A stretch of 64,000 nt of DNA from assembly GCA_963782915.1 (NCBI GenBank), contig CAWALK010000018.1, positions 128,001 to 192,000 on the forward strand. Direction: 5' to 3'. Positions 5,563-59,390 of this stretch are shown here, in pieces. The notes below the pieces were generated by a model. It did not search any database. It saw only the letters and a program-made list of their open reading frames with translations, and was not told the DNA's origin. The stretch's first letter is position 1; each line of letters starts with the position of its first letter. The DNA is from an uncultured archaeon. GTDB taxonomy: Archaea; Thermoproteota; Bathyarchaeia; Bathyarchaeales; Bathycorpusculaceae. Made by a program: the position numbers and the translations under genes.

Positions 5563-5772
5563 AGGCGTTTGCAAGTTTTAGAGATAAATAACTATGCTTG
5601 TGTTAGGGTAATGTTGTTTCTATAGACGATTGTTTGGTGCGGGCTTATTTTTGGGGTGCATATGCAACTGATGGTTTACGATTTGTTTACGACTCTACAC
5701 TGGCTCAGAGAACGCTGATCTAAAACCTGAATAAGAAATTAGCAAGTCCTAAAAAAAGGGCTAAATTTTTCT

Positions 5773-5892: not shown

Positions 5893-6043
5893 AAAAATTC
5901 ACCTCCGCTAGAACATTGAATGGGTATTCAACCATGTTGGGCACATAAAGCTATGTGACTGCCATACATCAAGAACAGAAAAGCTTGAAAATTGGCGTTT
6001 AATTCAAAAAGCTAAACCAAAAGTACCCTAAACCCGCTAAAAT

Positions 6044-6535
6044 TCAACTATTCTGAGCCTCAGCTTTAACGGTATCCAACATCGCAAACGAGGCTTTTCC
6101 AGTCAAATAACCGCAGAGTTCCCCTGGATTAATAACCAGTGTTTTGCCTTTTTGCTGGATGCTTTTGTTGTGGCTGTGCCCATGAACTACGGCGTTGAAG
6201 TAACCGCTATCTACCAGTGCATTTAGCAGTTCCGCTTCGTCACCGTGCAGCAAGCCGATTCTGTAGCCCTCAACAGTTACCTGTGTGAAGCGGTCATGTA
6301 TTGTGCAGTTGGTGGTTTCGTTAAATCGTTTTGTGAGGAGTTGGTGGTCGCCGTCGTTGTTGCCGAAAACGCCGATGAGGGGGCAATTGAGTTTTTTGAA
6401 GTGTGCGATTGTGAAGGGTGAAACGTAGTCGCCTGCATGGAGCACTAAGCTTACTTTGTGGTCGTTTAGCATTTGCACGGCTTTTTCTATCTGCACCAGA
6501 TTGTCGTGTGAATCTGAAATTGCGCCAATCAGCAT
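6044..6535 (-). CDS. YfcE/MJ0936-family metallophosphoesterase
   Basis: ISDSHDN, HAGD, GNND, HG, GHSH, NPG motifs. Confidence 0.92.
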   Translation of the reverse strand: MLIGAISDSHDNLVQIEKAVQMLNDHKVSLVLHAGDYVSPFTIAHFKKLNCPLIGVFGNNDGDHQLLTKRFNETTNCTIHDRFTQVTVEGYRIGLLHGDEAELLNALVDSGYFNAVVHGHSHNKSIQQKGKTLVINPGELCGYLTGKASFAMLDTVKAEAQNS

Positions 6536-7013: not shown

Positions 7014-7729
7014 AACCGCTCAAGCACAGAGGGCAATTCATTTAGGCGCTTTATGGTTTGGTCTGGGCTAAACTTTTCGGACGCTTTCTGTACCCGCCGC
7101 TCGATATAAACTGCCCTCATGCCCACAGCTTTGGCGCCTTCGATGTCTGCGTCGATTGTGTCGCCGACAAAAACTGCCTCCTCAGGGCATAGGTTCATCA
7201 ATTTTAGGGTGCTTTTGAAGATTTCTTGGCTGGGTTTGCGCTTGTTAATTGCCCCCGAAACCACAACCACTTCAAACAAGTCGTTGATGCCGCTGGTTTT
7301 AAGGAGTTTAACTACGCATTCGGGGATGGCGAAATTTGAGATGACCCCTAACTTGTACTTTTTATGCAACACTTTGAGGGTTTCCTCTGTGTCGGCGTCT
7401 ATGTGGACGTACTTCATGAATTCCTCACAAAACTCACCCGTTGCTGCACAGACGATGGGGCTTGAAACATCATAGTTGTATCCTAAACTGTTCAGCGTAG
7501 CAGCGATGCGTACGTTGAAGTGGGGTTCATCGAAGTTCGAGTCGGCTTTCGCAAAAATCTTGTTGCGTTCACTGATGTAGGTCTGCTCAAACTTTTCAAA
7601 GGGAACATCGACGCCATGCATGTTTAGGTACCTATACATTCGCCTGATTGAAGGTGGATAAAATTCGTGGTCTTTTTCGATGAGCATAATGGTATCGAAC
7701 ATGTCGAATAAGACGGCTTTAATGGGCAT
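7010..7729 (-). CDS. HAD-superfamily hydrolase
   Basis: FDMFDT, ISN, KP, VGDTIDADIEGA. Confidence 0.92.
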   Translation of the reverse strand: MPIKAVLFDMFDTIMLIEKDHEFYPPSIRRMYRYLNMHGVDVPFEKFEQTYISERNKIFAKADSNFDEPHFNVRIAATLNSLGYNYDVSSPIVCAATGEFCEEFMKYVHIDADTEETLKVLHKKYKLGVISNFAIPECVVKLLKTSGINDLFEVVVVSGAINKRKPSQEIFKSTLKLMNLCPEEAVFVGDTIDADIEGAKAVGMRAVYIERRVQKASEKFSPDQTIKRLNELPSVLERF

Positions 7730-9057
7730 CGGTTAAACCTACGTTGGGTTTCGTTGATGGTTTATTGTTGTTGTCGTGGGCTAAAACTCTTTTCTGCCAC
7801 CGCTTCTTAGCCACATAGTAGGTTGAGCCTGCGATTACGAATGCAACGCCGATGAGCCAAGCTTCGGTAGAGGCGAATAGAATGAAACCCAAAAGCATGA
7901 TACAGGTGCCTAAACCCAAGATGGGCAGGAACCGCAGTTTTCTGTTCCCATTTTTGAGTTTGTAGGCTGATATGTTTGTGATAGAATAATTGAGAACCAA
8001 AGCAAAAGTGCTGATTGCCACAACTCTTGTCAGGTCCACAAATAGCACCAACACCGCCATCAAAACACCCGTTCCAACAATCGCATAATAAGGCGTCGAG
8101 AACCTGCCGTTTAGCCGCGCCAACGCCGAGGGCAAATCGTTGCGGCGTGCCATCGAATAAGCCATCCTAGAAACCCCCAAAATCGCGGTCAACAGTACGC
8201 TGGCTGTTGCCACTAAACCGCCGATGGCGACTAACTGCACAGCTAAAGAGTTGCCTGTGACGCCGATGGCTGAACTGAGCGGGGAAGCTGAAGCTGCAAG
8301 CCCATCCGCACCAATCAACCCAACAGCCACCAACCCCACAAGCACATAAATCAGCATCGAAATCCCCAGCGACAACAAAAGCGCCCGTGGCACGTTGCGT
8401 TTGGCATCCTTAATTTCCTCAGCAATTACGGTGACTCTTGCGAAGCCGCCGTAAGCAAAAAAGATGAAAAAAGTCGCATATAAGACTCCGCTTGAAAGAG
8501 GCACAAACGGGGCAAAGTTGGCTGTGTTAACGTTGAAGGCTCCGAAGGCTACAAAGAACGCTAAAACTGCAAGTTTGATGGCGACAAACACGTTGTTAAC
8601 ATTTGCTGATTCTCTTGCACCCAGCAGATTTAAGCCTGTGAAAACCAGACACATGACGGCGGCAACGATGTTGGCGGGCAAACCAGGTATAGCAGAGCCC
8701 TAAATAAAACGCGAAACCAAGCGAAACAGCGGCACCTGTGAAAGTGTTGGCGACAAGCCACATCCACCCAGCCAAAAACCCAGCGTATGGCGAAACCAGT
8801 TGCCGACCATACTCGTACACGCCTCCTTCTACGGGTTGCCAAGCGGTTAATTTGGCGAAGCTAAATGCTGTGATGAATGCGATGATGCCTGCGATTATCA
8901 TGGAGAGGATGAGTGCTGAGCCCGCGTAGCCTGCGGCGATGCCTGTGACGACGAATATTCCGCCGCCTATGATTGCGCCGACGTTGATGGCGACGGCGCT
9001 CCAGAGTCCGATTGAACGCTTTAGGGCGGGGGCTTCTTGTTTTGCCACTGAAATCAC
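7719..9057 (-). CDS. APC-family amino acid permease (one indel near 8690)
   Basis: GAIIGGGIF, GGVYEY, FFAYGGF..AEEIKDAKRNVPRA spread over two frames. Confidence 0.9.
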
Positions 9058-10017: not shown

Positions 10018-12910
10018 CTATTTGTCCCAGAATTCTCTTGTCCGCAGAAACTGAATCTTCGCTTTAAGCAGGTCCATGTAGAACTTGTCTTCTTCAGGAT
10101 GCATCTTACCCAAGATTCGCGATGCCGTTTCGGGTCCGACGCCTTTGACCTGTAGGGCGCGGACTGCTTCTTTGCCGTAGCTCAAGATCAGGTCTGCTTT
10201 GCGTCTTGCTTGGCTGACTTCTTTGAGTTCTTCTGGCGTGAGTTCTTTGCCTTCTTTTCGGCGTTTTAGTGCATCTTGCAGTTTCGCTTGGTCCTGTGAG
10301 CGATACAGCGGAGCCAGCAACCCTGACCCGCATTTGCCGCATTTGGGCTCTTCTGGTAGCTCCTTAATTTTCTGGTGAGTCGTCCATTCGCCGCATTTCA
10401 TGCACAGCAGTGTCGTCTCTCGGGCTTCGATTGCCATTTTGAGTTTGTCTACGTTGTTTACGAGGATTTTTTCAGGCGCCATTAACTCGGTTACGTCGCC
10501 GAATTTCGATAAAATGTAATAGGCTAGCGGTGAGGGTTTTTCGTAGCTGATGTAGGTGGTGACTTTAATTTTGCCCTCTCGCACTTGCTGCATGATTTGT
10601 TTGGCTTTGTCTAAATCGACTTTTTCCATCATGGCTTCTCGGATGGTTTCGCGGTAGACGGGTGTGTTGTCGAAGCGGTTTTTGAGGTCGGCTTGGCGTT
10701 GGTAACTCATCGTTTTGCCCCTTGGGAGTACGCCGAAGCGTTCTGCGACGAATTTCATTTTGTAGCCGAAGGGGAATTTAGCGTCTAAATACTTTTTGAA
10801 GGCGTTATCTACCGCTTCATCGCTGAGTCCAAATAGCGTTTGGGGTAATTCGGCGAGTTCCATTTTGTTTAACTTACGCGGTGCTTCGATTAGGATTCTG
10901 TAGCCGTCGGTCCACCAGCCGCTGATGACTTCGCGCTCCGAGAGGACGCTGTCAAAGATGCCGCCGAGTGTTTTGTTGACGAGTTCACCGAAGCAGGCAT
11001 GCACAATGATGTAGCGGTCATACACTTCCAGCACAATATGGTTCTGTGTCGGCAACGGTGCACCCAACTTTATGTGCTCGTAGACTTCGCTGATGGCTTG
11101 CGTCATGCTGGCTTTGTCTGAACCTAATTCTTTGGCTAAAACCTCAGCCGCAACAGCGGGATCGCCCGTCTCCTTGAGCACCTGCGCAATTCTTTGGCGG
11201 TTCTGCCCTGTCTGCTGCGCCAACTCAAAGGGCACAGGCAAAATCTCCCCATCCCAACCAGGCACAGACGCCATCGGATCCTCAGACGGCACCACATGCA
11301 CCGTCCCCGCCTCATCCTCAATCTGAACAATCCGCCAAACCTTACCCTTCATAATAAAATTCAAGCCCACACGCGCATGCAACGCCATGAATTCATCGCC
11401 TAACGTTCCGATTTTGCGGTCGCTTATGACGTTGATGACTGGGTAGCGGCGTTCGTCGGGTATCATGGATAGGTTTTCGTAGTAGTAGATGCGGGTTTTT
11501 TTGGTTTTAGTCAAAACGGTTTCGTCTTCGTTTAGTCTTATTTGGTTGAGGCTGTCTAAAAAGCGTAGCAGGTCCGCGAGTTCGGTTTTCTGGGTTTTGT
11601 GGTAGAGGTAGCTTCGGTGGATTATGCGTGTTAAGTCCTCTACTGCAAGCGGCTGCGCATCCATGAGTAAGCCTGCGATTTGATGCGCTAAAACGTCGAG
11701 GGCGCCTGTATGCATCGGCACTGGCTCAATCAGCCCCGCCTTTGCATTCTTAATCGACGCCAAAGCCTCCAGCGTGTCGTCGGGATAAACGGTAACTATG
11801 ACGCCGTGGGATTCCCTGCCTAATCGGTGCCCGCTTCTGCCAACCCTCTGGATTAAGCTGTTAACTTGCCGAGGCGACATGTACTGAACAACTAAATCCA
11901 CCTGCCCCACATCGATGCCTAATTCAAGGGTGCTCGTGCAGATGATGGCTTTTAGCTGCCCAGCTTTAAATTCATCCTCAATCGCGATACGCTCTTCTTT
12001 AGAGATGGAGCCATGATGGACGGCTATGTCTTCTCTGCCCAACTGCGCCAGCTTATACCCTAAAACCTCAGCGATAGTGCGGCTATTAACGAAAATAAGC
12101 GTAGACTGATGGCTATCCACCAGTTCGAGTATGCGCCTGATTCTCGCCGCTGCTTCAGGCGAAGTATCCAGTTTGCCTGCCAATTCATAGTCTTTCTCGG
12201 TGGGTGAGGGGTTTTCGACGCTGTAACGGTAACTCTTCTCCGCCGAAGCCTCCAATTATGGCGATTTTGCGGCGGCTTCCAGCGAGGTACTTGGCGATTT
12301 CTTGGGGGTTGCCGATGGTGGCTGATAAGCCGATGCGTTGGAATTCCCTGCCAGTAACCAACCGTAAACGCTCCAATGCCACCGATAATTGTGCTCCGCG
12401 TTTGCTCCCTGCTAAATCATGCACTTCATCCACAACCACAAACTCCACCGCTTTGAGGTGCCGACGCATCTGCGACCCAGGCAGAATCGCTTGCAGAGTC
12501 TCAGGGGTGGTGACGAGCATTTGGGGCGGTTGTTTGGCTTGTTTGCGGCGTATCTTCATTTCTGTGTCGCCATGGCGTACATCGACGGTTATGTCGAGTT
12601 TTTGGCTCCAGTATTGCAGGCGTTTGAGCATATCGCGGTTGAGTGCTCGAAGGGGCGTTATGTAGATAACTTGTATGCCGTGTTCTTCTGCGCTTTTCTG
12701 TTCAACCAGCTTCGAGAAAATCGGCAGTAAAACGGCTTCGGTTTTGCCAGTGCCAGTCGGCGCAATCAAAAGCACGTTTTCGCCTGCCAGAATCGGCGGG
12801 AACGCTTTGGTTTGGGGCAGCGTAGGCGCTGTGAATCCAAACTCATAGAGGGCTGTTTGGACGGGTTTGGCTAGTAATTCGAAGACAGAAGGGGCTGTTG
12901 CTGGCTGCAT
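10018..12910 (-). CDS. lhr: Lhr-like SF2 helicase with C-terminal Zn ribbon and HhH (indel near 12250)
   Basis: APTGTGKT, PLRAL, TTPE, DEVH, SAT, HHGS, TSTLELGID, QRVGRSGH; CMKC/CGKC; GVGPETA. Confidence 0.92.
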
Positions 12911-18453: not shown

Positions 18454-19247
18454 ATGATGTAAACTTGTATGTAGTCAGTTTAGCTATAGCTTTTTTCGGC
18501 TTAGTTCTAGGCTGCTTCGCGCACTGAAGGCATACAGAGTAAGAGAGGGCATCAAAACGCTTCCGATGATCAACGTTATGAATTGGAGAAAAATTTTTCC
18601 TTAGTATCGGTAGTGGGCTGCATACCTACCTTAGCCGCACGAATATGGACAACTTCTTTTTTGGATAACGGTTGTTTCGCTGATTTTCGGTTTCTGGAGC
18701 AATGTGCGAGTTCGGCGTTTTCTAAGCAGGCGCACGCTGGTCTTGGGCTAACTTAGTGTTGAAGCTTTTTCACGATGTTTGCATTTGGCGGTTGGCTATT
18801 CTTTGACTCATGAACAGAAAACTAGAAGAGGTCTCCACTGTATGAGTTCGATTTCTCGAGGCTTCGTTTTACTTCTGCCTCTTCTATTCATCGATGCCCT
18901 CCTAGATCATTTCATTCTTTGGAGGGCTACGCAGCCAATGGTTGTTCTCTGCTGCATCGTCATGTGCTTCCAACACAACACCTGGACTGTTCAACGTAGG
19001 TTGCCTCTTCTGCTTTATAACATACCAGTATCCTCTCCTTTGGGGAGTTATCCCCGCCTACTCTGTTTCCATCGCCTTAGTAGTATGGAATTTTCTGTTT
19101 CGGCGATCTTCCAAGAATAACCCGGAGATTAGAGACGAAATTCTGGGTGTGAATCGAAAGGTTGTTTTGGCATGCATAATTTTAGCGGTTACCGGTACAG
19201 TACTGCTGGTGCTGCAAATGGCGCTGGTAGCATTGAGCAATACTTAA
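18454..19247 (+). CDS. multi-pass membrane protein with GAMC and CC motifs (indels)
   Basis: Pieces read DQRYELEKNFSLVSVVG, GAMCEFGVF, PLLFIDALLD, VLCC, GCLFCF. Confidence 0.55.
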
Positions 19248-19317
19248 AATCAATGCATCGAATTCAAGCTGTTTTCTTTTTTAGCATGTGCTAAAGGAAA
19301 AGATTGGGGTGCATCCT

Positions 19318-19827
19318 TTGAATCTTAAAAAAATCTTTATAGCCGAAATCTCTCTCGGCGGTCATAATAATCTTGTTCGCCGCGTTTTTTGTTAGAGTTT
19401 ACGCCATTCTTGTCAAACGGAGGGCAAACAGAGCCAATATTGTTGTCTTCAACCAAAGAGAATTAAGCTCGTAAAAGAATTCTGCTATCCGCGGGTCAAA
19501 GAGATAGCTCACAAAGCAATCTTTACAACCTACGACTCGGCTATAATGGTCGTGGATATAGAGTTCCACGATCTGGCAGAGATCAGGGTATCTCTCGTTG
19601 TACTGCAACGGCATATTAATAGTGACGTTTGAGGCGACACCAAACAATCCTTATGTTGAATTAACCACTATAACTTTTAGGGCTTTGATATAGTAAAGCC
19701 ACCGCCTCCTAAACTGCCAATCTCTTTTGCGTTTGCCTACGGAAACGAAGTTTCCTTTTTGTCTCCTGAATCAAACGGGTACGAGGGGTCTTTTAGCTAT
19801 CAAATCAACATTAGAGGAAGCCGATAA
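19318..19827 (+). CDS. membrane-anchored hypothetical protein (indels)
   Basis: Pieces read AVIIILFAAFLLEF, GYLSLYCNGILI, YEGSFSYQINIRGSR*. Confidence 0.5.
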
Positions 19828-19829
19828 AT

Positions 19830-20153
19830 TTGGGTTCAAAATTAATACTATCGATTTTGGTTGTTCTAACACTTTTCATTCTGTGTTCTTGCGCTTTATC
19901 GCAAATTTCTTGGTCAATGAAAGAGAATACCTCGGATTCCCTACGCCAATTAGTTGGGTTACCAAGTATAGCTGTTGGGAACCTTAGCCCCTCAACTAGA
20001 AACCCTGGAGTTGAGTTATTTTGCACTGGACTTTACGATGTTCCTGGTGGTTACTGCAGCTATTTTTCTTTGGGATCGTCATACATCGACTTCCAGATGC
20101 CGTCAAACTTTACAGTGACCAACAACTCGATAATTGAAGTTGGAGGAAAATAG
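19830..20153 (+). CDS. small membrane-anchored/secreted protein preceding the ABC permease
   Basis: Hydrophobic N-terminus; LVGLPSIAVG..TRNPGVELFCTGLYDVPGGYC. Confidence 0.7.
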   Translation: MGSKLILSILVVLTLFILCSCALSQISWSMKENTSDSLRQLVGLPSIAVGNLSPSTRNPGVELFCTGLYDVPGGYCSYFSLGSSYIDFQMPSNFTVTNNSIIEVGGK

Positions 20154-21396: not shown

Positions 21397-22064
21397 TTGA
21401 AGCATTAAACTTGACTAAAATTTATAATCAAGGCAAAAAAAACCAGGTTGAAGCCTTAAAAGATGCAAGCATAACCGCAGAGAATGGAGCAATAACCGCA
21501 TTGGTGGGACCCAGCGGCTGCGGAAAAACCACTTTGATGAGTATAATTGGACAACTGCTAACACCTACCAAAGGAAAAGTAATAATCGACGGGGAAAACA
21601 TCACCGCATACTCAGACGGTTGGAAAGCTTCTTTTAGAAGAAAAAACATGGGGTTTGTCTTCCAACACATTAACTTGCTTCCTAACTTTAACGCTTTAGA
21701 AAATGTGATGACTCCGCTTATATGCCAAGATATTGATCCTGCTAAATACAAGGGGTTAGCTCTTGAATTGCTGGGTCAATTGGGATTGTCGGAGAGGGCG
21801 TATTTTAACGTAGAACAGCTCTCAGGTGGTCAGCAGCAGAGAGTGGCTGTGGCAAGAGCGTTAATAACCGAGCCGAAAATAATCGTTGCTGATGAACCGC
21901 TAACTTTCGTTGATGAAGCATCCGCGAAGAGAATAACTGATTTCTTCGTTAAACTCAAAGATGAAGGAAAAACAATTCTGATTTCGACACATGCCGCTAG
22001 CTTAGCGAAACTTGCAAGTAAAACATATTTGATTACTGATGGAAAAATTTTTGATTCTTACTAG
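21393..22064 (+). CDS. LolD/MacB-type ABC ATPase
   Basis: GPSGCGKT, GFVFQ, LSGGQQQRVAVARAL, ADEP, TH. Confidence 0.95.
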   Translation: MIEALNLTKIYNQGKKNQVEALKDASITAENGAITALVGPSGCGKTTLMSIIGQLLTPTKGKVIIDGENITAYSDGWKASFRRKNMGFVFQHINLLPNFNALENVMTPLICQDIDPAKYKGLALELLGQLGLSERAYFNVEQLSGGQQQRVAVARALITEPKIIVADEPLTFVDEASAKRITDFFVKLKDEGKTILISTHAASLAKLASKTYLITDGKIFDSY

Positions 22065-22500
22065 TTCCAGTAAAATATGCGGCAATTTAAAAATTGTTTT
22101 TTTAACCGTTTTGATGATTCTAGTTTATCCAGCATATTTTTTTTGACATTCAGGATAGTTAAGCTGTAGTTAAAAAACTCTTAAATTCTGCTTGCGAATT
22201 ACGGCTCAACCAATCTACAATCCAAGACATAAATAAAGCATTGTGATCAAACCAAATAGAAGATGAGTAATGGATAGTACCATTATCTAATACTGAGAAA
22301 TCAAACAAACTACAACTTTTCCAGAGGGGTATTGTTAAAAATAAGAGCTAAAGTCAAAAGCCATTTATGAAAAAATCCCGGCCATTTTTTTGATTAACGT
22401 TAAGGGTATATAACAAATTAGCATTAGAAAGTATTAAATTATCGTATAAAAAAGAAAAAGGGGAATCGCTTTTTTGCAACGTATTTAACTTTTCTTTAGA

Positions 22501-40753: not shown

Positions 40754-41371
40754 TTAGTCTTCCGCTTCAGGCTCTTCCCCAGCTTGTTCTGGCTGCTCTT
40801 GGGCTTCGGATTTCTGCTTCTCTGCGCTTAGCAGCATCTCGATGAGTTTTTTCTCGTCCACTTCTGCCCTTGTGCGCCAATCCAGATACAGTTGCCCTTT
40901 GTCGTCTTGCGTAAGGTAGCCGTAGCGTATGTAGCGGTCGAGGTTTAAGCCGATTTTCCAGTTAGGCATCTTCTCGCCTAGCAGTTTTTCGACGTCTTTG
41001 CGTGTTGCCTGCCCTTTTTTGCTGACGATGTAGCTGATTGTTATGGCTAAGCCTGCGAGGTCGTCAACTCTCCAACCCATCAACTTGTCCTTTGATGCAA
41101 CGTCGCGCAATGCTACGAAGAAGCGGGCTTTATCCAGCTCCTCAATGGTTGGTTTCTCAGGGGTCTTCTCTTCCTCAAAAACCGTTTTAACCTGCATATC
41201 AAGCGGTTTTAAGTAATCGTCCAAGACATCGAGCACTTTGGGGTACTCGCTGCCCAAGGCTTTGTGGAGTTCCCAGCCCTTCACGCCTGGTTTAGCGTGG
41301 CGTTTGTAGAATAGCATCTGGGTGGCTTTCTTGACTTTGCCTGCGTAGAGGCCTTTTCGTTTTTGACTCAT
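40754..41371 (-). CDS. KITE protein, MAGE/Nse1-Nse3-like tandem winged helix
   Basis: GLAITISYI, LDRYIRYGYL, LYLDWRTRAEVDEKKL resemble MAGE/Nse1 WH-B; ATGA overlap with the kleisin gene. Confidence 0.72.
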   Translation of the reverse strand: MSQKRKGLYAGKVKKATQMLFYKRHAKPGVKGWELHKALGSEYPKVLDVLDDYLKPLDMQVKTVFEEEKTPEKPTIEELDKARFFVALRDVASKDKLMGWRVDDLAGLAITISYIVSKKGQATRKDVEKLLGEKMPNWKIGLNLDRYIRYGYLTQDDKGQLYLDWRTRAEVDEKKLIEMLLSAEKQKSEAQEQPEQAGEEPEAED

Positions 41372-42200
41372 GGCTGTTTACCTGTTTTCCATTTTTGCCA
41401 GTCTTCTACGGATACGGCGATTGGAATCGACTGGGACTGCACCGTCAACGCCTCAACCCGCGGCTTATCGAAGGGCAGTATAAACATGGTTTCTTCTAAC
41501 CTGTCGATTTCCAAGGTGGCGTATCCGTATGTTATTAGGAAGCTTGTTAGGAATGCGCGTTGGACGGTTTCTTCGTAGGTGTCTGCGCCGATGAAGTCCC
41601 AGTAGGTGATTTTGCCGTTTGCGGCTTTTTGGCGACTTTAAGTTTAGCTTGCCAGTAGCATTCGAGTTCTTCCCCGAACTCTTTGTCGCTCAAAACGCGG
41701 GCTTTGACCATTTCTTCTCGGCTAACCGAACCCATCGCAACAGCGGAGACATCGATGTCTTTCCATCGGTCACCCAACGGAGCCAATGCATCCCAATACA
41801 GCAATCCCTGGGCTAAACTGTGCAGGCTGAGCTGCTCAGACTCCACAAGGGGCGTCCAAGCTGACACAAACACGTCGACCATGCCCTGTTTGCTGGTCTG
41901 GCGAATCTTCTCTTCGAGCAGAAAGGGGTCTGTGTAGAGTGAGGTTGAGCGCTGTTTCACCCATTCACTCTGAATCTTGATGACGGATGCAAGGTGGTGG
42001 AGGGCTTCAGCATCTAATCTTAGCTCTTCGGGCTGGTCCCAATGCGGAAAATACTGCCTCACAATCGCGATTATATCGTCCACGTTTAGTGTAAATGGGT
42101 CAACTTGGCGGCTTTCAATGGCAACACACATTTCAACAATGCGTTCCAATCGCTCTTTGCCCAGTTTCTTCTCATGCTTCTCTGTTTGGATGGTTGGCAT
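41368..42200 (-). CDS. kleisin, Nse4/ScpA-like (indel near 41625)
   Basis: N-terminal VDPFTLNV..ELRLDAEAL; shifted C-terminus ITYWDFIGADTYEETVQRAFLTSFLITYGYATLEID..IAVSVEDWQKW. Confidence 0.72.
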
Positions 42201-44118
42201 TAGGCGACCTCACGGACTAAGCTTTTGCCTTCGAGGTTCTGGACGGTGATGACGTTGGCGTCTTGTGCTGCAAACGTGATTTGGCTGGGTGTGATGACGA
42301 CGTATTGGGCTGAGGCGTCTTTTATGAGGGCGACCAGGACTTTGGCGATCATTTCTCGGTTTTTGGGGTCCATGTGGATGTCGTATTCGTCGACTGCTCG
42401 GAATGGGCTGCGGACATGCTGCTGCAGTGCCAATAGGAAGCCCATGGTTGCGGTGGTTCTTTCTCCGCCGCTCTGCGTATAAGCATCCAATGCTACGGGT
42501 CTGCTGCCTTTGAAGCCCAACATAAATGTCCAATCCAGCAGATTCGATGTCTACGGCGTTTGAAAGCTTCACTTCACCCGTCGCTAAAGTCTGACCCATG
42601 ATACGCTGGTATTCAACGTTGACGCGGGTAAGGAGTTCCTCCATGACGGTGCGCCAAGCGGACATGCGGGTTTTGACTTCTTCGAGGGTTTTCTCTCGGT
42701 TCTCAGCGACTAGTTGCGCTTTTTCTTTGAGTTCTAAGTAGAGTTTTGAGTAGGATTCGTATTGGCGCTCGATTTCTTCTGAGACGGAGGTTAATGCGGC
42801 TAGGTGTCCGTCGGTTAAGCCCATTTCTTCTTGGATTTCGCCTGCAGCTTTTGAGGACTGCGATGCGTTCGCCTGATTCTTGGGCTTTTGCGAGGGCGGC
42901 GTTGAGTGTGTCTTGGGCTTCTTTGAGGGTTTTCTCGATTGTTTTTCCCTCGTTAACTGAGCGTTCACGCTTAAAATCCAAGAGTGCGAGGCTGACGCGT
43001 TTATCCAATGCGCCCGCAGAGGTTTTGTCTGTGGATTCTTCGAGTTTGCCGAGTTTTGTTTGGTTAGCTTTGATTTGGACGGAGGCTTTTTGGATTTGCT
43101 GCTGGGAGGTTTTGAGCAGTTCTTTGAGGTTGTCGGCGCGGAGAAGTTTGAATTGGTTCTTGTTAGCGGCTGTTTCTAACAGTTGCGCTTCGCCGAGTAA
43201 CTGCTCAATCAGCGATTGGGTGGATTCATTCTGGGCAATTTGCCGTTCAAGGCTTATGCGTTCGTCATAAGCGCCTTTGATTTCGCCCCGAAGCGTCCTC
43301 TGCTGAATTTCTTGCCCATCCAATTCGCCGATGATAGATTGGCGTTCGTCCTCGATTTTGCCCAGCGCCTGCTGGTTCTTGTTAAAATTAGCCTGCAAAC
43401 TCTTCACTATGGCTTCTTTGCGTTCAACTTCTGCCCAAACTAATTCGCGGTCCAAAAAACGCCTTTTAAGCTGCAATTGCTTTTTCTCTTGGAATTTCTC
43501 GTACTGTTCCCGCCAGTAATTGAGTGTCTGTTGGGCTTGTTCGAGGAGTTTGCCGACGGATTCTTCTTGGCTTAAAATGCGGGTTAGCTTGGTTTTGGCG
43601 CTCAGTACGTTTTCTCGGAAAGGCTCCAATCCCACGGCATCTTCGACCATTCGCAGCTTGTCGACGTTGCTCAAGACGCTGAATTGTTCCACCATGTTCT
43701 GGTGCATGATGATTAGCATGTTGTCTGGGTCTACGCCGAATTTGCCCAGCAATCGTTCTACGTCTTGTTTGGTGGCGTTGCGGTTTTCGAGTTCAAAGAA
43801 GTATTTGCCGTCCCGTCGCAACACGCGGGTTAGGAAGAGCTGGTCTTTGTTGTATTTTGGTTCGGGACGCCTGTTGCCTTGTTTGCTGTTATCTAAGATG
43901 AGGGTGACGCGTGCTTGGTCTTGTCCCCAGCGAATTAAATCGCTAAGTTTACGGGACCGTTCCGTAGATGTCTGACCCAAACCCACACTAATGGCGAGCA
44001 GTAGCGAAGATTTTCCTGCGCCGTTGGGTCCCCCAATTACGTTAACGCCCTTCTTGAAAGGTACACGGGCGTACTCGTAACTCATGAAGTTTTCAACGAT
44101 AAGTTCTTGAATTAACAC
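42200..44118 (-). CDS. short SMC5/6-type ATPase, ~640 aa (indels near 42845 and 42520)
   Basis: VENFMSY, GPNGAGKSS, QSGGERTTATMGFLLAL, SPFRAVDEYDIHMDPKN, QYVVITP; coiled-coil middle. Confidence 0.88.
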
Positions 44119-44283
44119 TAAATTTTTGCCTCTAACTAAGCGTCCAAACTATGGGAAGGGGGTCTTATTAAAACGATTTGACAGCTTTATGCAAAAACCA
44201 CCAGTACCGAAGAGAGATTGAATCATAAACGCAGAAGCTGTTTTGCTAAAACAAAAATATAGGGGTAACTTTATGTTACCAAC

Positions 44284-45072
44284 TTATTTTTCGCGTTTAA
44301 AAGAGCCGTGCCCGCCCTCTTTGGTGACGTTGGCAACGACGGTTTCGCTTACTTTATCAAGCACTTCTTCAGCGCGTTTCCAAGTATCCGCAGAAACCTC
44401 AACACTGTACTTTGGTGCAGCGATAACGGCGAATTCGACTTTGGCATCTTTTGCTTTCGTCGCAGCTTTGGCAGCACTAAAGGCTTCTTTGATGCAGCGC
44501 ACACCGTTTGGAGTCATGCAACGGACTTCAATGATGCCGCGGACCTGTACCAGCTTAATTTTTATGCGTTCCTCTGCAACCTGCACAATGACTTTGGTGA
44601 TGTCTTCGGGGATACCCATCTTGGTGAGAAACTCGGGGCCCTCTTTAACGGTCTTCTCGAAACCCTCGTATAAGCCGATTTTTTCTTCAAGAGGAGCACC
44701 AACGGTCTGGTACATTTGCTGTAGGGGCACACCCATCTTGTCAGCTACTGCTTTGAGTAAGGCGTCTCCTTTGCGGTCTTTCTTCCAAGACTTAATCTTC
44801 TCAATACGTTCACGTTTGGTGACACGGCGGAGGGATAGGTCGATGTGTCCTTTCTCGACATCCACACGCAGAACCTTTAGAACCATCTTTTGGTTTTCAC
44901 GAACAAAATCTCGCACGTTCCGTATGCGGGCGCTGGAGATTTCTGAAATATGCAAAAAGCCTCTTCGGTGATATTCATCGAGGTTTGCGTAGGCACCGTA
45001 ATCCATCACGGTTTCAATCGAAGCGATTACTAGATCGCCTGGTTCTGGCCATTGAGGTTTGTTTTCGGACAT
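44284..45072 (-). CDS. eif2a: translation initiation factor aIF2 alpha
   Basis: WPEPGDLV, YGAY..LDEY, LHISEIS, KVLRVD..KGHIDLSLRRV, AAPKY. Confidence 0.95.
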   Translation of the reverse strand: MSENKPQWPEPGDLVIASIETVMDYGAYANLDEYHRRGFLHISEISSARIRNVRDFVRENQKMVLKVLRVDVEKGHIDLSLRRVTKRERIEKIKSWKKDRKGDALLKAVADKMGVPLQQMYQTVGAPLEEKIGLYEGFEKTVKEGPEFLTKMGIPEDITKVIVQVAEERIKIKLVQVRGIIEVRCMTPNGVRCIKEAFSAAKAATKAKDAKVEFAVIAAPKYSVEVSADTWKRAEEVLDKVSETVVANVTKEGGHGSFKREK

Positions 45073-45240
45073 TATTTCACTCTTGTTACTCTGATTTCGT
45101 GAATTAGAACTAACAGGAAAAGACTTGTTCCGTTCAAGATAAGGATTTCCACTTGCAAAACCCCAAAAACCCAGAAGCGCATGAAAAATAAACAAGTTTA
45201 TACTACAACATTTTTATTTAGATACACACTTGGTACCATT

Positions 45241-45877: not shown

Positions 45878-47905
45878 TCAAATCTGAACATTGCCTTTTT
45901 TATAACCCACAAGCAATGATACCAACGCTATGGCAGCTACGGCTATAATCCCAGCGAGTATTAACCAGTTTATAGACAAATCTTGATCTACCGCCATGGG
46001 TTCGGGTGTTGATGTTTGGGTTTGAGCGTTTTGGTTTATGGCTTGGTTTTGGTTAGCTGGGGGAGTTGGCGGTGCTGTTGGCTTTGCTGTGGGAATTGGG
46101 GTTGATGTGGCTGCGGGTTGTGAGGTTGGGTTTGCAGTGGGTGAGGGCGTTGGCATTGCGGTTGGCTGAGGAGTCTGGGTTGGCACTGGAGTAACCTCAT
46201 TCGGGTTTCCTAGTGCATAGATTTTGCCGTCATAAGAGCCTATGTAGACGACGCCGTTTGCGATGGCCGGTGAAGAAAACAGAAAACCACCCGTACGATA
46301 AGCCCAAACTGCCGAACCAGAGGTGGCGTCTAATGCGAACAGGTAGCTATCGAATGAGCCGAAGTATACTGTGTTGCCAGCGACTGCTGGAGAAGAGTAC
46401 ACGTAGCCGGTCAGTTGGCGTTGTGAATAGGGTGAGGTGAAATACCAGATTTGTGAGCCATCGGATGCGTTGAAGGCGTAGTAGCCGTTGCGTGAACCAA
46501 CGAAGACTGCGCCATTAGCGACTGCGGGTGAATCGTCAGCGTGGTCGGTTTTGCCAAAGGCCGCTTGCCAAATTCGGGAGCCATCAAGCGCTTTTAGAGC
46601 GTAGATAGTGCCATTATCAGAGTTAACGTACACTACGTTGTTAACGACTGCTGGGGAAGCATAGACTTCACTACCAGTACGAAACGCCCAAATTATTGCT
46701 CCATTAGCGGCGTTTAAGGAATAAACGTAGCCGTTGCATGACCCAACATACACTACGCCGTCGACGACTGCTGGCGAAGAAAACACTGACCCTCCGATAA
46801 GCTTAGACCAAACCAAACTGCCACTGCCGGCATTTAATGCATAGACATAGCCCGAGTAGGAGCCAACGTAGACGACGCCATCAACCACTGTTGGTGATGA
46901 TTCGATGCCGCTGTTGGTTGTAAAACGCCAGATTAAGGAGCCTGTGGTAGCGTTCAAGGCATCCACATAGCCGTTATGACCATCCCACAAGATGCCAACG
47001 TAGACTATGCCGTTTGCTATTGCAGCAGAGGATTCTATTTGGCTGCCACTGTTGTATTGCCAGATTAGTTGTCCGGATGTGGCATTTAGGGCGTAGAGGT
47101 AACCGTTGTTTGAGCCTTCATAGACGACGCCGTTGGCTATTGTGGGTGATGAGCGTATTTTGTCGCCGGTGCTAAATTGCCAAAGTGGGGTTGCATCAGG
47201 AGCGTTGGAAGTTGATGTTCCAGTGTTCTGTGGGTCATGACGATACATTGACCAATCATCATTAGAGAAAGGACTTGGATTAGCGATACTATAGGTAACG
47301 CCGTTAAGAACCAGTTGATCAGCAAATAGGGGCTGGTTAAGTCCGCCTGCATCTTTAACAGCCCAATACTCCAAAGCTACACCAACCGAGCGGATTGTCG
47401 CGTTCCCATAAATCCCCTGCCAGTAACCCAGATTCTCCCAGGGATTACTGTAAGCCTCCAAAGTGTTACTTGTGTTAGTCCATCCCCACCGTTGCCCACC
47501 CTGACCAAGTTGCCAACTACTATTGCTACAAGTGAGGTAGTCACTCATCAAGGTAACTTCCGTTTGACCATCCCCATTGCTGTCTAGTAAAATAACAAAT
47601 CGTGGAAGGGCATCAGTATAGGATGTATAAACCTGAAAAGACTGCAAAGAACTCAACGGTTGATTGACAGGATACAGAACCATGCTGCATGAACCTTGTG
47701 ACGCATTTGATGGAAGAATCAACTCAGCGGCATAAGAGCTACCATGCGTTGAATTACCACTCAAGTATGCTTTTCCTTCACCATGCGTAAAGAATTGAAC
47801 GGTTAACGTGTTCGGGGAATTTTGATTTGAGGCTAAAGTACCTGAAACTAACAGGGATAATAATAACAGCGATAAAACAACAATCACAGGACCAGTATAT
47901 TTCAT
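45878..47905 (-). CDS. PQQ/BamB-type beta-propeller surface protein
   Basis: Eight SSP..NGVVYVGS..LYALNA..G..W-type repeats; signal peptide, PT linker, C-terminal TM. Confidence 0.9.
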   Translation of the reverse strand: MKYTGPVIVVLSLLLLSLLVSGTLASNQNSPNTLTVQFFTHGEGKAYLSGNSTHGSSYAAELILPSNASQGSCSMVLYPVNQPLSSLQSFQVYTSYTDALPRFVILLDSNGDGQTEVTLMSDYLTCSNSSWQLGQGGQRWGWTNTSNTLEAYSNPWENLGYWQGIYGNATIRSVGVALEYWAVKDAGGLNQPLFADQLVLNGVTYSIANPSPFSNDDWSMYRHDPQNTGTSTSNAPDATPLWQFSTGDKIRSSPTIANGVVYEGSNNGYLYALNATSGQLIWQYNSGSQIESSAAIANGIVYVGILWDGHNGYVDALNATTGSLIWRFTTNSGIESSPTVVDGVVYVGSYSGYVYALNAGSGSLVWSKLIGGSVFSSPAVVDGVVYVGSCNGYVYSLNAANGAIIWAFRTGSEVYASPAVVNNVVYVNSDNGTIYALKALDGSRIWQAAFGKTDHADDSPAVANGAVFVGSRNGYYAFNASDGSQIWYFTSPYSQRQLTGYVYSSPAVAGNTVYFGSFDSYLFALDATSGSAVWAYRTGGFLFSSPAIANGVVYIGSYDGKIYALGNPNEVTPVPTQTPQPTAMPTPSPTANPTSQPAATSTPIPTAKPTAPPTPPANQNQAINQNAQTQTSTPEPMAVDQDLSINWLILAGIIAVAAIALVSLLVGYKKGNVQI

Positions 47906-48120
47906 GCTTTGTTGCACCAATAATGCCGTTCACTGGATTTCAAATAAAAGCGTTCTTGTCAAGATTTATAGACAAAGCTAAGTCAAGGTTTATGAACTAA
48001 AACGTAAGCCAACAAAAAATGACTTAGCCCACTAATTCAAGCGAGTTGCCGTTCAGGTTTAACAGTACCCATTATTCAGCGACGTTTCATCGCCTAGTCA
48101 GCCGATTTCGCGGACTGAAC

Positions 48121-56096: not shown

Positions 56097-56470
56097 GTTT
56101 TTTTAGTTCTCCCATAAGTTATTTCTAAAATTAATGTGAATGCTGTGATTTGTGAGTGATTGGGTTTTTTTCAAGTTTACATTTCCTCCGATGCTGGGTT
56201 GTCCAACTTCGAAAAAGGATTCTCTAAACTTTTCTAAGAGCACAAACAGATGCTGCATAGCTAACTAATAAACCTTGTTATTGATTATGGTTGATAAGGT
56301 AAGTACTGGTAAAGTTTGAGGAGGGGTTTGGATGGAGCAATCGATAGCCTGTGCGTTGCATCCACGTTTTTCTGTGTCTAATTATAGAGTGGGTCAGCCT
56401 CATAAACTTTGCAATTTAGATGCTTTGCTGCTTTTGTTTTTTGGTTTTTCTAGTAACAGAAGAAGGAATA

Positions 56471-56580
56471 GAGCCCCTATACCCTTCTTCTTCCTGCGGG
56501 CTTGGCTGTAGCATCTGTTTTGGTATGTACGTTTGGTTTGGGTTGCAGGCTGATTGTGGAGAGATTTCTACAAGCAGAAT
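56471..56580 (+). repeat. dispersed repeat family A copy (lacks the 5' hairpin)
   Basis: Colinear with 5391-5495: CTATAC..TCTTC..GCGGGCTTG.CTG..CTGTTT..TTGCA..GAGATT..AAGCA. Confidence 0.72.
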
Positions 56581-56633
56581 AGGTTTTTTGATCTATTAGT
56601 AACAAGTTAGTCAAATAAGCCCATGTAAAGGTG

Positions 56634-57764
56634 CTAATTACCCATCATAAACAAAGCCATTTCCACATCAGCCACGCTAAACGGGAAACCTTCCTCGTTG
56701 AGTTCATTACGAATAATCTCTAGAATCCACAGTAGTTTCTGGTAGTTCTCTGCCCAACCCATGGGAGACACATCCGCGTCTCCAAGGCGATTCACGCCGG
56801 GCGGGGACTTTATGATCCGCTCACCATTATAAATTAGGGTTTTTAAGGCTGAACCAACACGGCTGTCCAGCGTTGCCAAGTAATTTTGGTCGAATAATCC
56901 AATTATTTTTGAGGCGCGGGAGATGCCGACCCCTTCAATAGTCATGAGTTTGAGTATAGCGTCTGAAGGTTTACCTTGATCAAGCAAACCAAAAGCGTCA
57001 CGGGTTACATGCAGACATTTCTGTTCATCCCGTTCAGGAAACAACGGGTTAGGAAAACTCCAAGTCATAACCGCGTCTAATGTGGCTAAATCTACTCCAC
57101 CGACATTACGTATGCGTGAGAGAACAAGCTGCTTTTGAAGTCCATTACGTTTATCTAATGATTCGGGGAGGTTTTTGTCTTTCCAACGGTAGTTTCTTCT
57201 ACCTATAACCAGTGCGTTTCGGTTCTCTTTGGTCCAGATGATTATCGTTGCAGCGTATTTTTGGTTGAATTCAGCCTTAGTTTTTGGTCCAATAGGAGCT
57301 TCAAGTGGTTTTGGAGGCTTCGGTTTTGGCACTTCCACCACTGCACTTGACACTGGAGTGGCTGGCACGACTAGTACTGGAGCTAATTGTGGTGCTGGCT
57401 GTGGTTCGATTAGTTGTATTTGCGGAGGGGTTTGTACTGGTTCTGGAACTGGCACTGGAGAAGCTATCGGTGGTGCAGACACCTGAGGTGGAGGCGTTGG
57501 AACCTCGGCGGTTTTACTGATTAACCGGTAACTTTCATTCCCCAAGAAATCGAAGTAGGGATGTACTGAATCTCGCATAGAGGACATTGCCAACACGTAT
57601 GTGCGTATGGTTGTTGCTGGCATGTTTGGCAGGCTTTCGTGGACTTTGTAGATTACATCGTTGGCTGTGAAGATATCTTTTTCTAAGCTTTTGGCAGACT
57701 CTAAAACAACCTGCATAATCCTGTAGTTGAGGTTCTGGGAACTATGGCCTGCCATGCACACCAT
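56634..57764 (-). CDS. two-domain protein: N-terminal wHTH-like, Pro linker, C-terminal HhH-glycosylase-like domain
   Basis: LMTIEGVGISRASKII..LDSRV..VADVEMALF. Confidence 0.6.
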   Translation of the reverse strand: MVCMAGHSSQNLNYRIMQVVLESAKSLEKDIFTANDVIYKVHESLPNMPATTIRTYVLAMSSMRDSVHPYFDFLGNESYRLISKTAEVPTPPPQVSAPPIASPVPVPEPVQTPPQIQLIEPQPAPQLAPVLVVPATPVSSAVVEVPKPKPPKPLEAPIGPKTKAEFNQKYAATIIIWTKENRNALVIGRRNYRWKDKNLPESLDKRNGLQKQLVLSRIRNVGGVDLATLDAVMTWSFPNPLFPERDEQKCLHVTRDAFGLLDQGKPSDAILKLMTIEGVGISRASKIIGLFDQNYLATLDSRVGSALKTLIYNGERIIKSPPGVNRLGDADVSPMGWAENYQKLLWILEIIRNELNEEGFPFSVADVEMALFMMGN

Positions 57765-57799
57765 TCAGGGGTTTGGGGATTTAAAACTTGCTTCGTGGC

Positions 57800-57880
57800 T
57801 GGAAGGCTTGCTTGGGGCTTTGGTTGACAGGTAGGTTGTGTTTGTTGCTCTGCACTGACCCCCCTCCCCTTATTTAAAGA
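57800..57880 (+). repeat. partial family A plus motif B
   Basis: AGGCTTG..GGTTGACAGGTAGGTTG TGTTTGTTGCTCTGC..CCCCCTCCCCTTATTTAAAG. Confidence 0.65.
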
Positions 57881-58014
57881 AGGGTTGTTTTGAATGCTCA
57901 CTATTCTGCATCCTTGTTTTGATGTCTTTTGTGGCAGGTGGCAATCCTTTACCTGTTTAGGAAGTGTTTAAAAGTATGCCACGTGTCATATATTAGTTAG
58001 GAGACAAACTCCAA

Positions 58015-58815
58015 ATGAAAAACAAATTCATCTTACTAATCGCAATCACCGCAACATTACTAATAGCCATCACACCCACAACAACCGCCGCTGGAACGCT
58101 AGAAATAACCAACCCATCACAAGACACCCAAAACTTCACCTATCAACAACTCACAGAAATGCCCCAAACCACCGTATACGCCGAACTCTACTGCTACGGC
58201 AGCCTAGTAACCATGGGCAACTGGAACGGAATACAACTTAGTTATCTACTAACACAAGCAAACGCCACCACTGAAGCCAAATCAATCCAATTTAGAGCCT
58301 CAGACGGCTACGTAGTGACCATACCAATCGAGGTAGCTATGGCACCAGAAACAATTATTGCCTATCAACTAGATGGGGCACCACTATCGGAAGGGCTTCG
58401 ATTAGTTCTGCCGGGAACTAACGGTGCATCATGGATTGCAAAAATCGTTTCCATAACTGCTAGCAATATGGGCGCTGAAACGCCTGCCCCAGCGGGAGCC
58501 AGTTTACCAAACGACGGTTTAATAAAAGGCACAAACGATAATACACAATCACTACCAACCCCAACCTTAACCCCCACCCCAACACAACCAACAACCAAAC
58601 CCACCCCTAACAATTCCACCCCAAATCCCAGTCCTTCTCCAGCAAACATAACTGAAGTTGAGCCAACAATCAAGCCACAGGATACCATAGACTCTCAATG
58701 GGGAACAATAGCTGCAATAATCGCTGTTTTAACGGTCAGTTTGGCAACAGTCACAACTTTTACTATCAAACGAAGAACAAAACCGAAGGATAGCCCGCTT
58801 ACTTCTTATCCGTAA
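58015..58815 (+). CDS. surface-anchored sulfite-oxidase-family molybdopterin-binding protein
   Basis: LYCYG..WNGIQL, ASDGY, IAYQLDGAPL..LRLVLPG..W; signal peptide and C-terminal TM. Confidence 0.85.
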   Translation: MKNKFILLIAITATLLIAITPTTTAAGTLEITNPSQDTQNFTYQQLTEMPQTTVYAELYCYGSLVTMGNWNGIQLSYLLTQANATTEAKSIQFRASDGYVVTIPIEVAMAPETIIAYQLDGAPLSEGLRLVLPGTNGASWIAKIVSITASNMGAETPAPAGASLPNDGLIKGTNDNTQSLPTPTLTPTPTQPTTKPTPNNSTPNPSPSPANITEVEPTIKPQDTIDSQWGTIAAIIAVLTVSLATVTTFTIKRRTKPKDSPLTSYP

Positions 58816-58877
58816 GCATTGGCTTTTTTATCTTTTTTTTATAACATTACTAGAATCAAATCAAGGAAAAGTGAGCA

Positions 58878-59183
58878 TTAGTATCTAGCTATCTTGTAGC
58901 GTCCCCGAAACTGACGCTTACGCTGCTCCTGAGCCTCAGTCAACTTGGAATTGGCGGTTTTAACCTCAAAAACAGTGGGCTCCCCAACTGTTCCGCCAAA
59001 AAAGTCTCTCTTCTGCACCACGAAGTCGCCGCCTTTGTGGATTTTTGTGCAGTCATGCCCTTCCATGGCTTGGTCGAAGGCGAAGCGGTCTTTGGCGATG
59101 CTGCCTTTTTGGCGTTTTGCATGGGGAAAACGGCGTGCAGTGTTGCCGAACCCGTAGGGTCTTTTGGGGTCTTGTTTAGCCAT
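58878..59183 (-). CDS. small PD-(D/E)XK nuclease-like protein
   Basis: GGDFVVQ..FEVKT..LTEAQ. Confidence 0.7.
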   Translation of the reverse strand: MAKQDPKRPYGFGNTARRFPHAKRQKGSIAKDRFAFDQAMEGHDCTKIHKGGDFVVQKRDFFGGTVGEPTVFEVKTANSKLTEAQEQRKRQFRGRYKIARY

Positions 59184-59390
59184 GTTGCAGCTTCGCTGTT
59201 AAATGCCGAAATGTTATTATTAAATTAATTGTAAAATGGCTCAGTATTTTATACTATGTCTTTCTTTGTTTTTCTTGCAGTTCTTGTTTCAGATTTATTT
59301 TGGCACCGCATTGACTGGTATTTTAATGCATCTTGACGCCATAGTTCGTGAGTTAATCGGAATTGTTCACTTCAACACTCAAAATATTTG

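Follow-up and report, generated by a model that had tools for sequence, protein, structure and literature searches.

The 64,000-nucleotide stretch of DNA analyzed here (the window) comes from an uncultured archaeon of the Bathyarchaeia (GenBank assembly GCA_963782915.1, contig CAWALK010000018.1, positions 128,001 to 192,000 of the forward strand). On its minus strand, running from 44118 to 40754, lie three genes of one direction that encode, in order, a structural maintenance of chromosomes (SMC)-type ATPase, a kleisin and a kite (kleisin-interacting tandem winged-helix) protein. It is highly probable that this locus is the operon of an SMC5/6-related complex, that its three genes are translationally coupled, that it constitutes a second SMC system of this Bathyarchaeia archaeon beside a canonical SMC-ScpA-ScpB operon, and that the breaks in its reading frames are assembly errors, in which case the genes are probably intact in the organism. 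The operon comprises the following elements:

44163-44172, minus strand: TATA-like box TTTTAATAAG, about 45-55 nucleotides upstream of the GTG start at 44118; read directly, its function presumed from its position

42200-44118, minus strand: SMC5/6-related ATPase gene, 638 amino acids once two extra bases are removed; three frames in the window

41368-42200, minus strand: Nse4-like kleisin gene, about 277 amino acids; one frame break

40754-41371, minus strand: Nse1/Nse3 (MAGE)-like kite gene, 205 amino acids, intact

A TAATG at 42200 joins the stop of the SMC gene with the start of gene 2, an ATGA at 41368-41371 joins the stop of gene 2 with the start of gene 3, and a GAGG lies about 11 nucleotides ahead of the GTG start of the SMC gene at 44118. 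A first-pass annotation, made from the letters and their open reading frames (ORFs), had reported three minus-strand genes linked by these two overlaps, a TATA-like element at about 44170 and a series of protein motifs. All are present: the overlaps and the box are as given above, and the translations contain every motif quoted, including GPNGAGKS, LDAYTQSGGER, FLLALQ, PFRAVDEYD..HMDP, QYVVITP and GEVKL..GLDIYV in the ATPase, together with ELRLDAEAL, YWDFIGADTYEETV..AFLTSFLITYG and VEDWQKW.

As assembled, the SMC gene is split over three open frames (42703-44118, 42210-42968 and 42200-42523), and the kleisin gene is broken once:

42844-42852, near 42846, minus strand: first SMC frame break, one extra base

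42516-42519, minus strand: second SMC frame break, one extra base, in or beside a G run

Within about 41616-41640, minus strand: kleisin gene frame break, one missing base

The same annotation had corrected a single indel, in gene 2; that gene does carry one, and the SMC gene has two more breaks, which it did not mention. All three are most likely assembly errors, and the operon is treated as functional because its orthologues are intact, because contigs from other sequencing runs lack the breaks, and because the assembly is prone to such errors. In 12 of 12 loci fetched from relatives, all three genes are uninterrupted, encoding SMC proteins of 638-685, kleisins of 270-288 and kites of 186-225 amino acids. 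A programmed frameshift was also considered as the cause and is ruled out, as the orthologues are uninterrupted and like breaks occur in unrelated genes.

Were the three frameshifts real, the operon would be a decaying pseudogene cluster in this genome, a reading that we regard as very unlikely. It draws on the spacing of the breaks, three in 3.4 kb being slightly denser than in the other loci checked, and on the absence of the system from some relatives, which means that loss does happen in the genus. Contigs of four public sequencing runs (X1, X2, X3 and X5), compared with the locus, argue against it. A 160-base contig of X3 (record 23) is identical to the window except for one base fewer at 42846; two contigs each of X5 and X2 have one base fewer at 42846 or 42848, and contigs of the same two runs have one base fewer at 42516 or 42519. 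Indels that restore the kleisin frame fall at 41624-41647: X2 and X5 contigs have four additional bases between 41630 and 41647, and an X1 contig (record 2; 98% identical) has 8 letters fewer than the stretch of the locus to which it corresponds, in each case with the frame restored. These runs hold at most 16% of the words of the locus and may represent relatives, while one might be the source sample, so that they count as support and not as proof; no statement on habitat or expression is drawn from them, and parts of the locus left uncovered in a run carry no meaning.

The quality of the assembly was gauged by comparing 505 ORFs of related loci with the whole genome (tblastn; a match required at least 60% identity and at least 80% coverage). 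Frame shifts occurred in 9 of the 36 matched loci, about two of which are probably antisense ORFs, and in 7 of 34 when the two genes at issue are left out; the canonical SMC gene of the genome is itself among the frame-broken genes. Shifts aside, all catalytic motifs and conserved residues of the operon are intact, and its identity to intact orthologues reaches about 80% or more, which again speaks against decay. Other frame-shifted conserved genes lie at window positions 10891-12910 (contig 18, 138891-140910) and, outside the window, at 56228-59306 and 96997-98176 of contig 18. Single-base indels are thus frequent in this assembly, and a broken gene in the window should be called a pseudogene only where reads support it.

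With the frames restored, the first gene would encode a complete ATPase, both ends of which match Pfam SMC_N in the window protein as well as in its orthologues. Its nucleotide-binding motifs are as follows:

44008-44031, minus strand: Walker A (P-loop) GPNGAGKS; G30-P31-N32-G33, G35, K36, S37 and S38 invariant in 30 family members

42458-42475, minus strand: ABC signature QSGGER; S-G-G-E-R invariant in 30 members

42380-42403, minus strand: Walker B and D-loop FRAVDEYD, followed by the H-loop HMD; D576, E577, H581 and D583 invariant in 30 members

The Q-loop glutamine is likewise invariant in these 30 sequences, which share about 40% identity. When an order-level profile of the ATPase was run against PDB sequences, human Smc6 scored 181.5 bits, yeast Smc6 153-157 and yeast Smc5 140-142, ahead of Pyrococcus Smc head constructs (99-121), Smc3 and Smc2 (69-89) and Rad50 chains (at most 33). 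The same profile gave 86-125 bits with four full-length canonical SMCs of relatives, and genomes that hold only a canonical SMC yielded no match at 1e-25. Of the NCBIfam models the SMC equivalogs come out best, with a quarter of the score required; Rad50 models (45-102 bits; cut-offs of at least 700), ASRP (52-72; cut-off 300) and arcadin-4 (35-49; cut-off 860) stay far below their thresholds. Some Joint Genome Institute (JGI) records name orthologues ‘structural maintenance of chromosomes protein 5’. Judged by these profile scores, the canonical SMC of the lineage is less close to the ATPase family than Smc6 and yeast Smc5 are, by a moderate margin.

The kleisin resembles Nse4 in its C-terminal part. 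Pfam Nse4_C was found on two single orthologues at expectation values (E) of 6e-05 and 1.4e-04 (23.7 and 22.5 bits, under Pfam's cut-off of 26 bits), and across the family it is matched at E<=0.01 by 44 of 102 full-length representatives, the best at 7.2e-09; SMC_ScpA is matched by none of the 102. In the PDB, a profile of the family matched best, over the C-terminal winged-helix region, EID3 (3e-07; the kleisin chain of 9lwi, a human SMC5/6 structure) and Nse4 of yeast (2.9e-06), with ScpA chains at E 0.028-0.36. Within the N-terminal motif ‘ELRLDAEAL’, D59-A60-E61 does not vary across the order, and in the family as a whole D59 is nearly invariant. At E<=0.001 the profile recovers 277 representatives of 50%-identity clusters, out of 1.84 billion; named records that encode close relatives are nearly all metagenome-assembled genomes of Candidatus Bathyarchaeota or Bathyarchaeia, including ‘Bathy6’ isolates and Ca. 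Bathycorpusculum, and a few are titled as other taxa.

For the kite, the evidence is chiefly structural. Its AlphaFold2 model is a tandem winged helix with a predicted local distance difference test score (pLDDT) of 80, and in a Foldseek search ranks 1 to 7 are occupied by Nse1, Nse3 and MAGE chains (E 7e-05 to 1.7e-03), followed by JetB, ScpB and MukE. VIA-align gives Z 12.5 to 7dg2_C (Nse3; root-mean-square deviation 4.7; 171 aligned), 11.3 to 7tve_C and 10.4 to 7qcd_E and 7ymd_B, the top matches spanning 171-183 residues; ScpB reaches Z 9.2 (149 aligned) and JetB 8.9 and 8.4. Many single winged-helix proteins score Z 8.4-9.8, over only about 65-90 residues. In the atlas, the nearest named cluster is a MAGE family (score 0.91, 201 of 256 features shared), and 21 of 30 kite matches fall in that family set. 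The 205-residue protein contains no cysteine, and therefore no RING. Kite profiles retrieved nothing significant from PDB sequences (best real candidate a MAGE-domain chain, E 0.52), and a profile search for homologues returned only close, unannotated relatives, so the diversity of the kite was drawn instead from 20 fetched genome regions.

Contact between the second and third gene products was addressed by predicting a complex of one kleisin and two kites, with alignments made in this analysis. The prediction reached an ipSAE of 0.55 against 0.02 for the best control, with runs agreeing in at least 57% of contacts and partner pLDDT of at least 71. In calibration, 116 of 157 solved complexes and 2 of 215 mismatches attained this mark; scores up to 0.60 included only 18 of the 157 solved complexes and both passing mismatches. 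As Nse1/3/4 structures have been solved, the pass may reflect likeness to them, and the prediction lends weak support to binding between kleisin and kite.

These results bear on what the first-pass annotation had proposed for each protein. Its SMC5-type ATPase, as opposed to condensin or Rad50, agrees with a profile that ranks Smc6 and Smc5 above canonical SMC and leaves Rad50 at or below 33 bits, and its MAGE-like tandem winged helix for gene 3 is matched by the Foldseek ranking and by the VIA-align lead of Nse3 over ScpB. An Nse4-like gene 2 holds for the C-terminus, given Nse4_C, the EID3 and Nse4 matches and the lack of SMC_ScpA; the N-terminal part, for which the same had been claimed, could not be shown to be Nse4-specific. 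It had named a head grouping with canonical Smc or Rad50, or partners closer to ScpA and ScpB, as outcomes contrary to its proposal, and the profile scores, Nse4_C and the kite fold matches all point the other way.

Complexes of this kind have been described before. Yoshinaga and Inagaki (2021; PMC8665677) defined the ‘SMC5/6-related aSMC’ with 80 homologues, 66 of them in TACK lineages, Bathyarchaeota included. Van Hooff, Raas, Tromer and Eme (bioRxiv 10.1101/2024.01.07.573240, version of May 2025) report that Nse4 branches with TACK and Asgard kleisins, that an archetype of the Nse1/3-like kite exists in archaea and that many archaea have two complete operons; they describe experimental study as still to come, and the characterization of archaeal relatives as of particular interest. 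In the portions available, the trees of both papers group archaeal SMCs of this type with Smc5/6, their kleisins with Nse4 and their kites with Nse1/3. A literature search, in part limited to such portions, found no functional or structural paper on an archaeal SMC5/6-like complex, and both surveys bear out the earlier statement that homologues are known from phylogenomic work without a functional description. The locus thus belongs to an already described kind, and the kind itself is not new: like the published complexes of TACK and Asgard archaea, it has a single SMC gene in one operon with an Nse4-related kleisin and an Nse1/3-like kite, and stands beside a canonical (condensin/cohesin-related) SMC-kleisin-ScpB operon. 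Nothing in this comparison speaks against its membership.

With the eukaryotic Smc5/6 core the locus shares the best ATPase profile match, the Nse4_C-type kleisin C-terminus and the MAGE/Nse1-type tandem winged-helix kite, and because all three match, the module of head, kleisin and kite that clamps DNA is probably the same. In contrast to the eukaryotic complex, there is one SMC gene in place of two paralogues and one kite gene in place of Nse1 plus Nse3; the predicted ATPase lacks a hinge, its arms have about 150 residues per strand, and there is no RING. Nse2, Nse5 and Nse6, further subunits of the eukaryotic complex, are not among the three genes of the conserved block (a genome-wide search for them was not made).

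The canonical system of the source genome lies on contig 12 at about 269430-274320 (locus L139, 3430-8434), with its SMC gene split into frames of 426 and 789 amino acids by a single shift near L139 4616-4710. There and in relatives, the canonical operon encodes an SMC of about 1183 amino acids (genome G001), a ScpA/Rad21_Rec8-like kleisin and a ScpB (121-128 bits). It has the same logic of SMC, kleisin and kite dimer, and the same gene order, as the operon in the window. An alternative is that the latter is a divergent second copy of canonical Smc-ScpAB with no special relation to SMC5/6, its Nse4 and MAGE likeness being that of shared superfamilies; kleisins and kites each form a homologous superfamily across all SMC complexes. 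The kleisin profile does weakly find ScpA-like genes (E 1e-4 to 3.5e-07) and PDB ScpA (0.028-0.36), ScpB and JetB are among the structural matches of the kite (Z 9.2 and 8.9), and the best Foldseek match of the ATPase is Pyrococcus Smc. We nonetheless consider a canonical origin extremely improbable: Smc6 and Smc5 are preferred over canonical SMC, Nse4_C over ScpA (44 against 0 of 102), and Nse3 and Nse1 over ScpB by about 2-3 Z units. Pfam SMC_hinge (PF06470), ScpA (PF02616) and ScpB (PF04079), all three matched by the contig-12 operon, whose SMC (1183 amino acids in the G001 copy) has a hinge and whose partners match SMC_ScpA/Rad21_Rec8 and SMC_ScpB, are not matched by the window proteins or their orthologues. 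Published trees of the family in general, in the portions available, group its members with Smc5/6, Nse4 and Nse1/3. An SMC5/6 relationship accordingly remains the preferred reading of the operon.

In one genome of the phylum (locus L131, G219 contig 205), an SMC5/6-related operon (2942-6152) lies about 1.5 kb from a convergent ScpA-like gene (within 7684-9023). Ahead of the latter stands another SMC-type ATPase gene, a weak match of which only the C-terminal end is included, as the locus stops at 9200. This neighboring pair is probably canonical SMC-ScpA, so that both SMC systems would adjoin there.

The three-gene block is widespread and its order well kept. With an ATPase fragment as the query, 20 of the 24 genus genomes gave strong matches (E<=1e-180) and, of 16 further genomes of the order, 15 matched at E<=1e-43; no strong match was found in four genus genomes (G006, 96% complete; G017, 97%; G018, 88%; G021, 65%), and none in G040 (97%) of the order. 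With the ATPase profile, 154 of 301 sampled genomes of the phylum matched, each with a best E<=4.8e-75, and whole families gave no match (f18, 0 of 43; f27, 0 of 20; f19, 0 of 13). The order SMC-kleisin-kite is preserved in 12 of 12 loci of relatives and, on one strand, in 17 of 20 regions from 19 other families of the phylum, which puts the reality of the genes well beyond coincidence. The three exceptions (G166, G046 and G044) hold both partners elsewhere, the three genes thus co-occurring in 20 of 20 genomes. In G166 (contig 19, 19128-29375) the partners are on the same contig, 5-9 kb from the SMC gene, and a tight operon is therefore not universal; there the kleisin (19128-19889, plus strand) and kite (21823-22374, plus strand) genes are about 1.9 kb apart, on the strand opposite SMC. 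G046 has an adjacent kleisin-kite pair on another contig, and G044 has such a pair at the start of another contig, its SMC gene running off the end of its own. Identity is 70-85% within the genus, about 55% within the order and about 40% within the phylum; flanking genes differ between loci, only the three genes being common. There is one strong locus per genome where examined, and in the source genome a whole-genome search found no second SMC copy of this type besides the one SMC gene of the operon.

What sets the family apart is the arm of its ATPase. Orthologues across the phylum have 578-699 amino acids, as against 1183 for the canonical SMC. An AlphaFold2 model of one orthologue (G007; 30 sequences; mean pLDDT 86.8) has an N-terminal head lobe to about residue 164, a helix at 165-315, a 12-residue loop at 316-327 (pLDDT about 60), returning helices at 328-415, 425-441 and 449-509, and then the C-terminal head lobe. 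It contains no globular hinge, and its tip leaves no room for a globular domain; the helix breaks at 416-424 and 442-448 may be the ‘joint’ of SMC arms. Carried over to the window by residue number, the turn falls here:

43135-43175, approximate, minus strand: arm tip (hairpin turn)

Taking a rise of about 0.15 nm per residue, one arm strand of 151 residues measures about 22 nm. In the family alignment the arm spans 267-391 amino acids, and the tip is the least conserved region, with indels centered on the turn; arms have 0-2 cysteines each, none of them conserved. SMC_hinge (PF06470) was not matched on any listed orthologue or on the window ATPase, whereas the canonical SMC (G001 copy) by contrast matches it at 76 bits. 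The ATPase is therefore predicted to have neither an SMC hinge nor a zinc hook of the Rad50/ASRP type.

Among long proteins, the short-SMC profile best matches two of about 1480 amino acids (P0391 and P0392; 195-202 bits), which have SMC_N and no Pfam SMC_hinge; NCBI names one of them Promethearchaeota (Asgard). Both may belong to this SMC5/6-related lineage as long-armed forms and could help to date when arm length and hinge were lost or gained.

Rad50, ASRP/ClsN/Sph, arcadin-4 and Lamassu LmuB are of similar size (about 600-900 amino acids), and like the ATPase of the window they consist of a head and a hairpin coiled coil without an SMC hinge. We know of no report of Rad50, ASRP, arcadin-4 or LmuB with an Nse4-type kleisin plus a kite. 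Rad50 and the ASRPs dimerize, according to the available text, via a zinc hook (PMC9389158); the family described here differs in having no conserved arm cysteine. No mention of a short hinge-less ATPase was found in the accessible literature on the archaeal complex; the preprint supplements may already note the lengths or the missing hinge. What appears new is thus the predicted short-armed, hinge-less architecture as a family-wide feature, the family being carried by 154 of 301 phylum genomes. It is possible, though we hold it with less than even confidence, that the closest prokaryotic relatives of SMC5/6 are as a family a headpiece-only SMC machine, with a short hairpin, no hinge, no zinc hook and a freely varying tip.

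Several points weigh against the assignment of the locus and against the architecture proposed for it. Its placement combines profile scores with published trees and not a Smc5/6-containing tree of these sequences, and human Smc5, at 109.5 bits, falls inside the canonical SMC range of 86-125, so that the margin rests mainly on Smc6 and yeast Smc5. Foldseek comparison of the ATPase model with the PDB does not discriminate, a Pyrococcus Smc head construct coming first and Smc6 second. Toward its N-terminus the kleisin does not match Nse4 significantly, and the sole PDB match of that part is to ScpA (E 0.028). The window kite has no Pfam match and is named by no library, and sequence support from its family is weak, MAGE being matched by 4 of 30 kites at E<=1 and SMC_Nse1 by 3 of 30. 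With three breaks in 3.4 kb, the operon is somewhat more broken than the checked loci of the assembly, which average about one break per 4-5 kb, and the system looks dispensable, since four genus genomes gave no strong match. The hinge-less architecture is drawn from one predicted model together with lengths and alignments, and the complex as a whole is known from sequence and models, from which we infer its function.

A mechanism consistent with these features would be the following. Two copies of the ATPase would engage their heads on ATP, and one kleisin, carrying a dimer of kites, would connect the first head at its neck with the second at its cap; heads, kleisin and kites together would then form an ATP-gated clamp around double-stranded DNA, resembling the clamp of heads and Nse1-3-4 in eukaryotic Smc5/6. 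Because the arm is a hairpin of about 22 nm with neither hinge nor zinc hook, the dimer would be held by heads, kleisin and kite and not by a hinge, and no large hinge-closed compartment of the eukaryotic kind is predicted. Long-range loop extrusion would be less expected of such a complex than the clamping or bridging of DNA, whether foreign or at intermediates of repair or replication. In the available text of Taschner et al. (2021; PMC8327961), engineered sub-complexes of hinge-less yeast Smc5 and Smc6 associate only with ATP, and the natural short form is predicted to show ATP-dependent association as these yeast halves do. For this mechanism as a whole, in which stoichiometry, DNA clamping and cellular role are all our deductions, we consider the chances evenly balanced.

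The role of the complex could alternatively lie chiefly in restricting foreign DNA (plasmids, viruses) instead of maintaining the chromosome, as with Wadjet/JetABCD, Lamassu and the antiviral human SMC5/6. Eukaryotic SMC5/6 restricts episomal viral DNA, the short-armed SMC generically resembles the mad3 and LmuB ATPases (91-103 and 57-62 bits with the PADLOC models), and the system, not found in four genus genomes or in several families, seems dispensable, as defence systems are. The partners of the ATPase do not fit this picture: kleisin and kite match no JetA, JetB or other PADLOC model (one Cas10_Id match, at E 0.0013, is taken as noise). A test for Wadjet/MksBEF gave no PADLOC match to JetA/MksF or JetB/MksE and no fourth conserved gene (JetD) at the loci, and PADLOC JetC matches the ATPase weakly, at 28-48 bits, over the coiled coil only. 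The conserved block includes no nuclease or effector, three genes being shared while the flanks differ, and a single strong locus is present per genome where examined. The system occurs in many families of the phylum and its divergence tracks kinship, which looks like vertical descent and not like a mobile island. A dedicated defence function is therefore unlikely, though of the alternatives raised here it is the one to which we give most room, and a clamp of the SMC5/6 type remains the reading that we favor.

Directly upstream of the operon, on the same strand (window 44284-45195), is a gene for a protein of about 300 amino acids, which we take to resemble translation initiation factor 2 alpha (S1 domain). 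Further upstream (45878-47920, minus strand), a 680-amino-acid ORF has many repeats of the type ‘YVGS..G.VYAL.A.TG’, a Pro/Thr-rich linker and a hydrophobic C-terminal segment; its repeats look PQQ/beta-propeller-like, and its product is probably a surface protein.

The kind of complex having been described already, the short-armed, hinge-less architecture of the family is the part that deserves specialist attention. The cellular job of SMC5/6 is the least understood among the eukaryotic SMC complexes, and Bathyarchaeia, along with about half of the genomes sampled from the phylum, have a complex of this type pared down to three proteins (about 640, 275 and 205 amino acids) with its ATPase motifs intact, making it an attractive minimal system for biochemistry and cryo-electron microscopy and raising the question of how an SMC-kleisin-kite machine predicted to lack a hinge holds together and holds DNA. 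If the architecture is as predicted, the SMC5/6 lineage would work, or would once have worked, as an ATP-gated DNA clamp of head, kleisin and kite, and this lineage could do without the hinge-closed ring, a structure held to be common to all true SMC complexes. The long arms and hinge of Smc5/6 would then either have been lost in this archaeal phylum or be inessential to the core activity, and the family would offer a naturally minimal, easily expressed model for the mechanism of SMC5/6.

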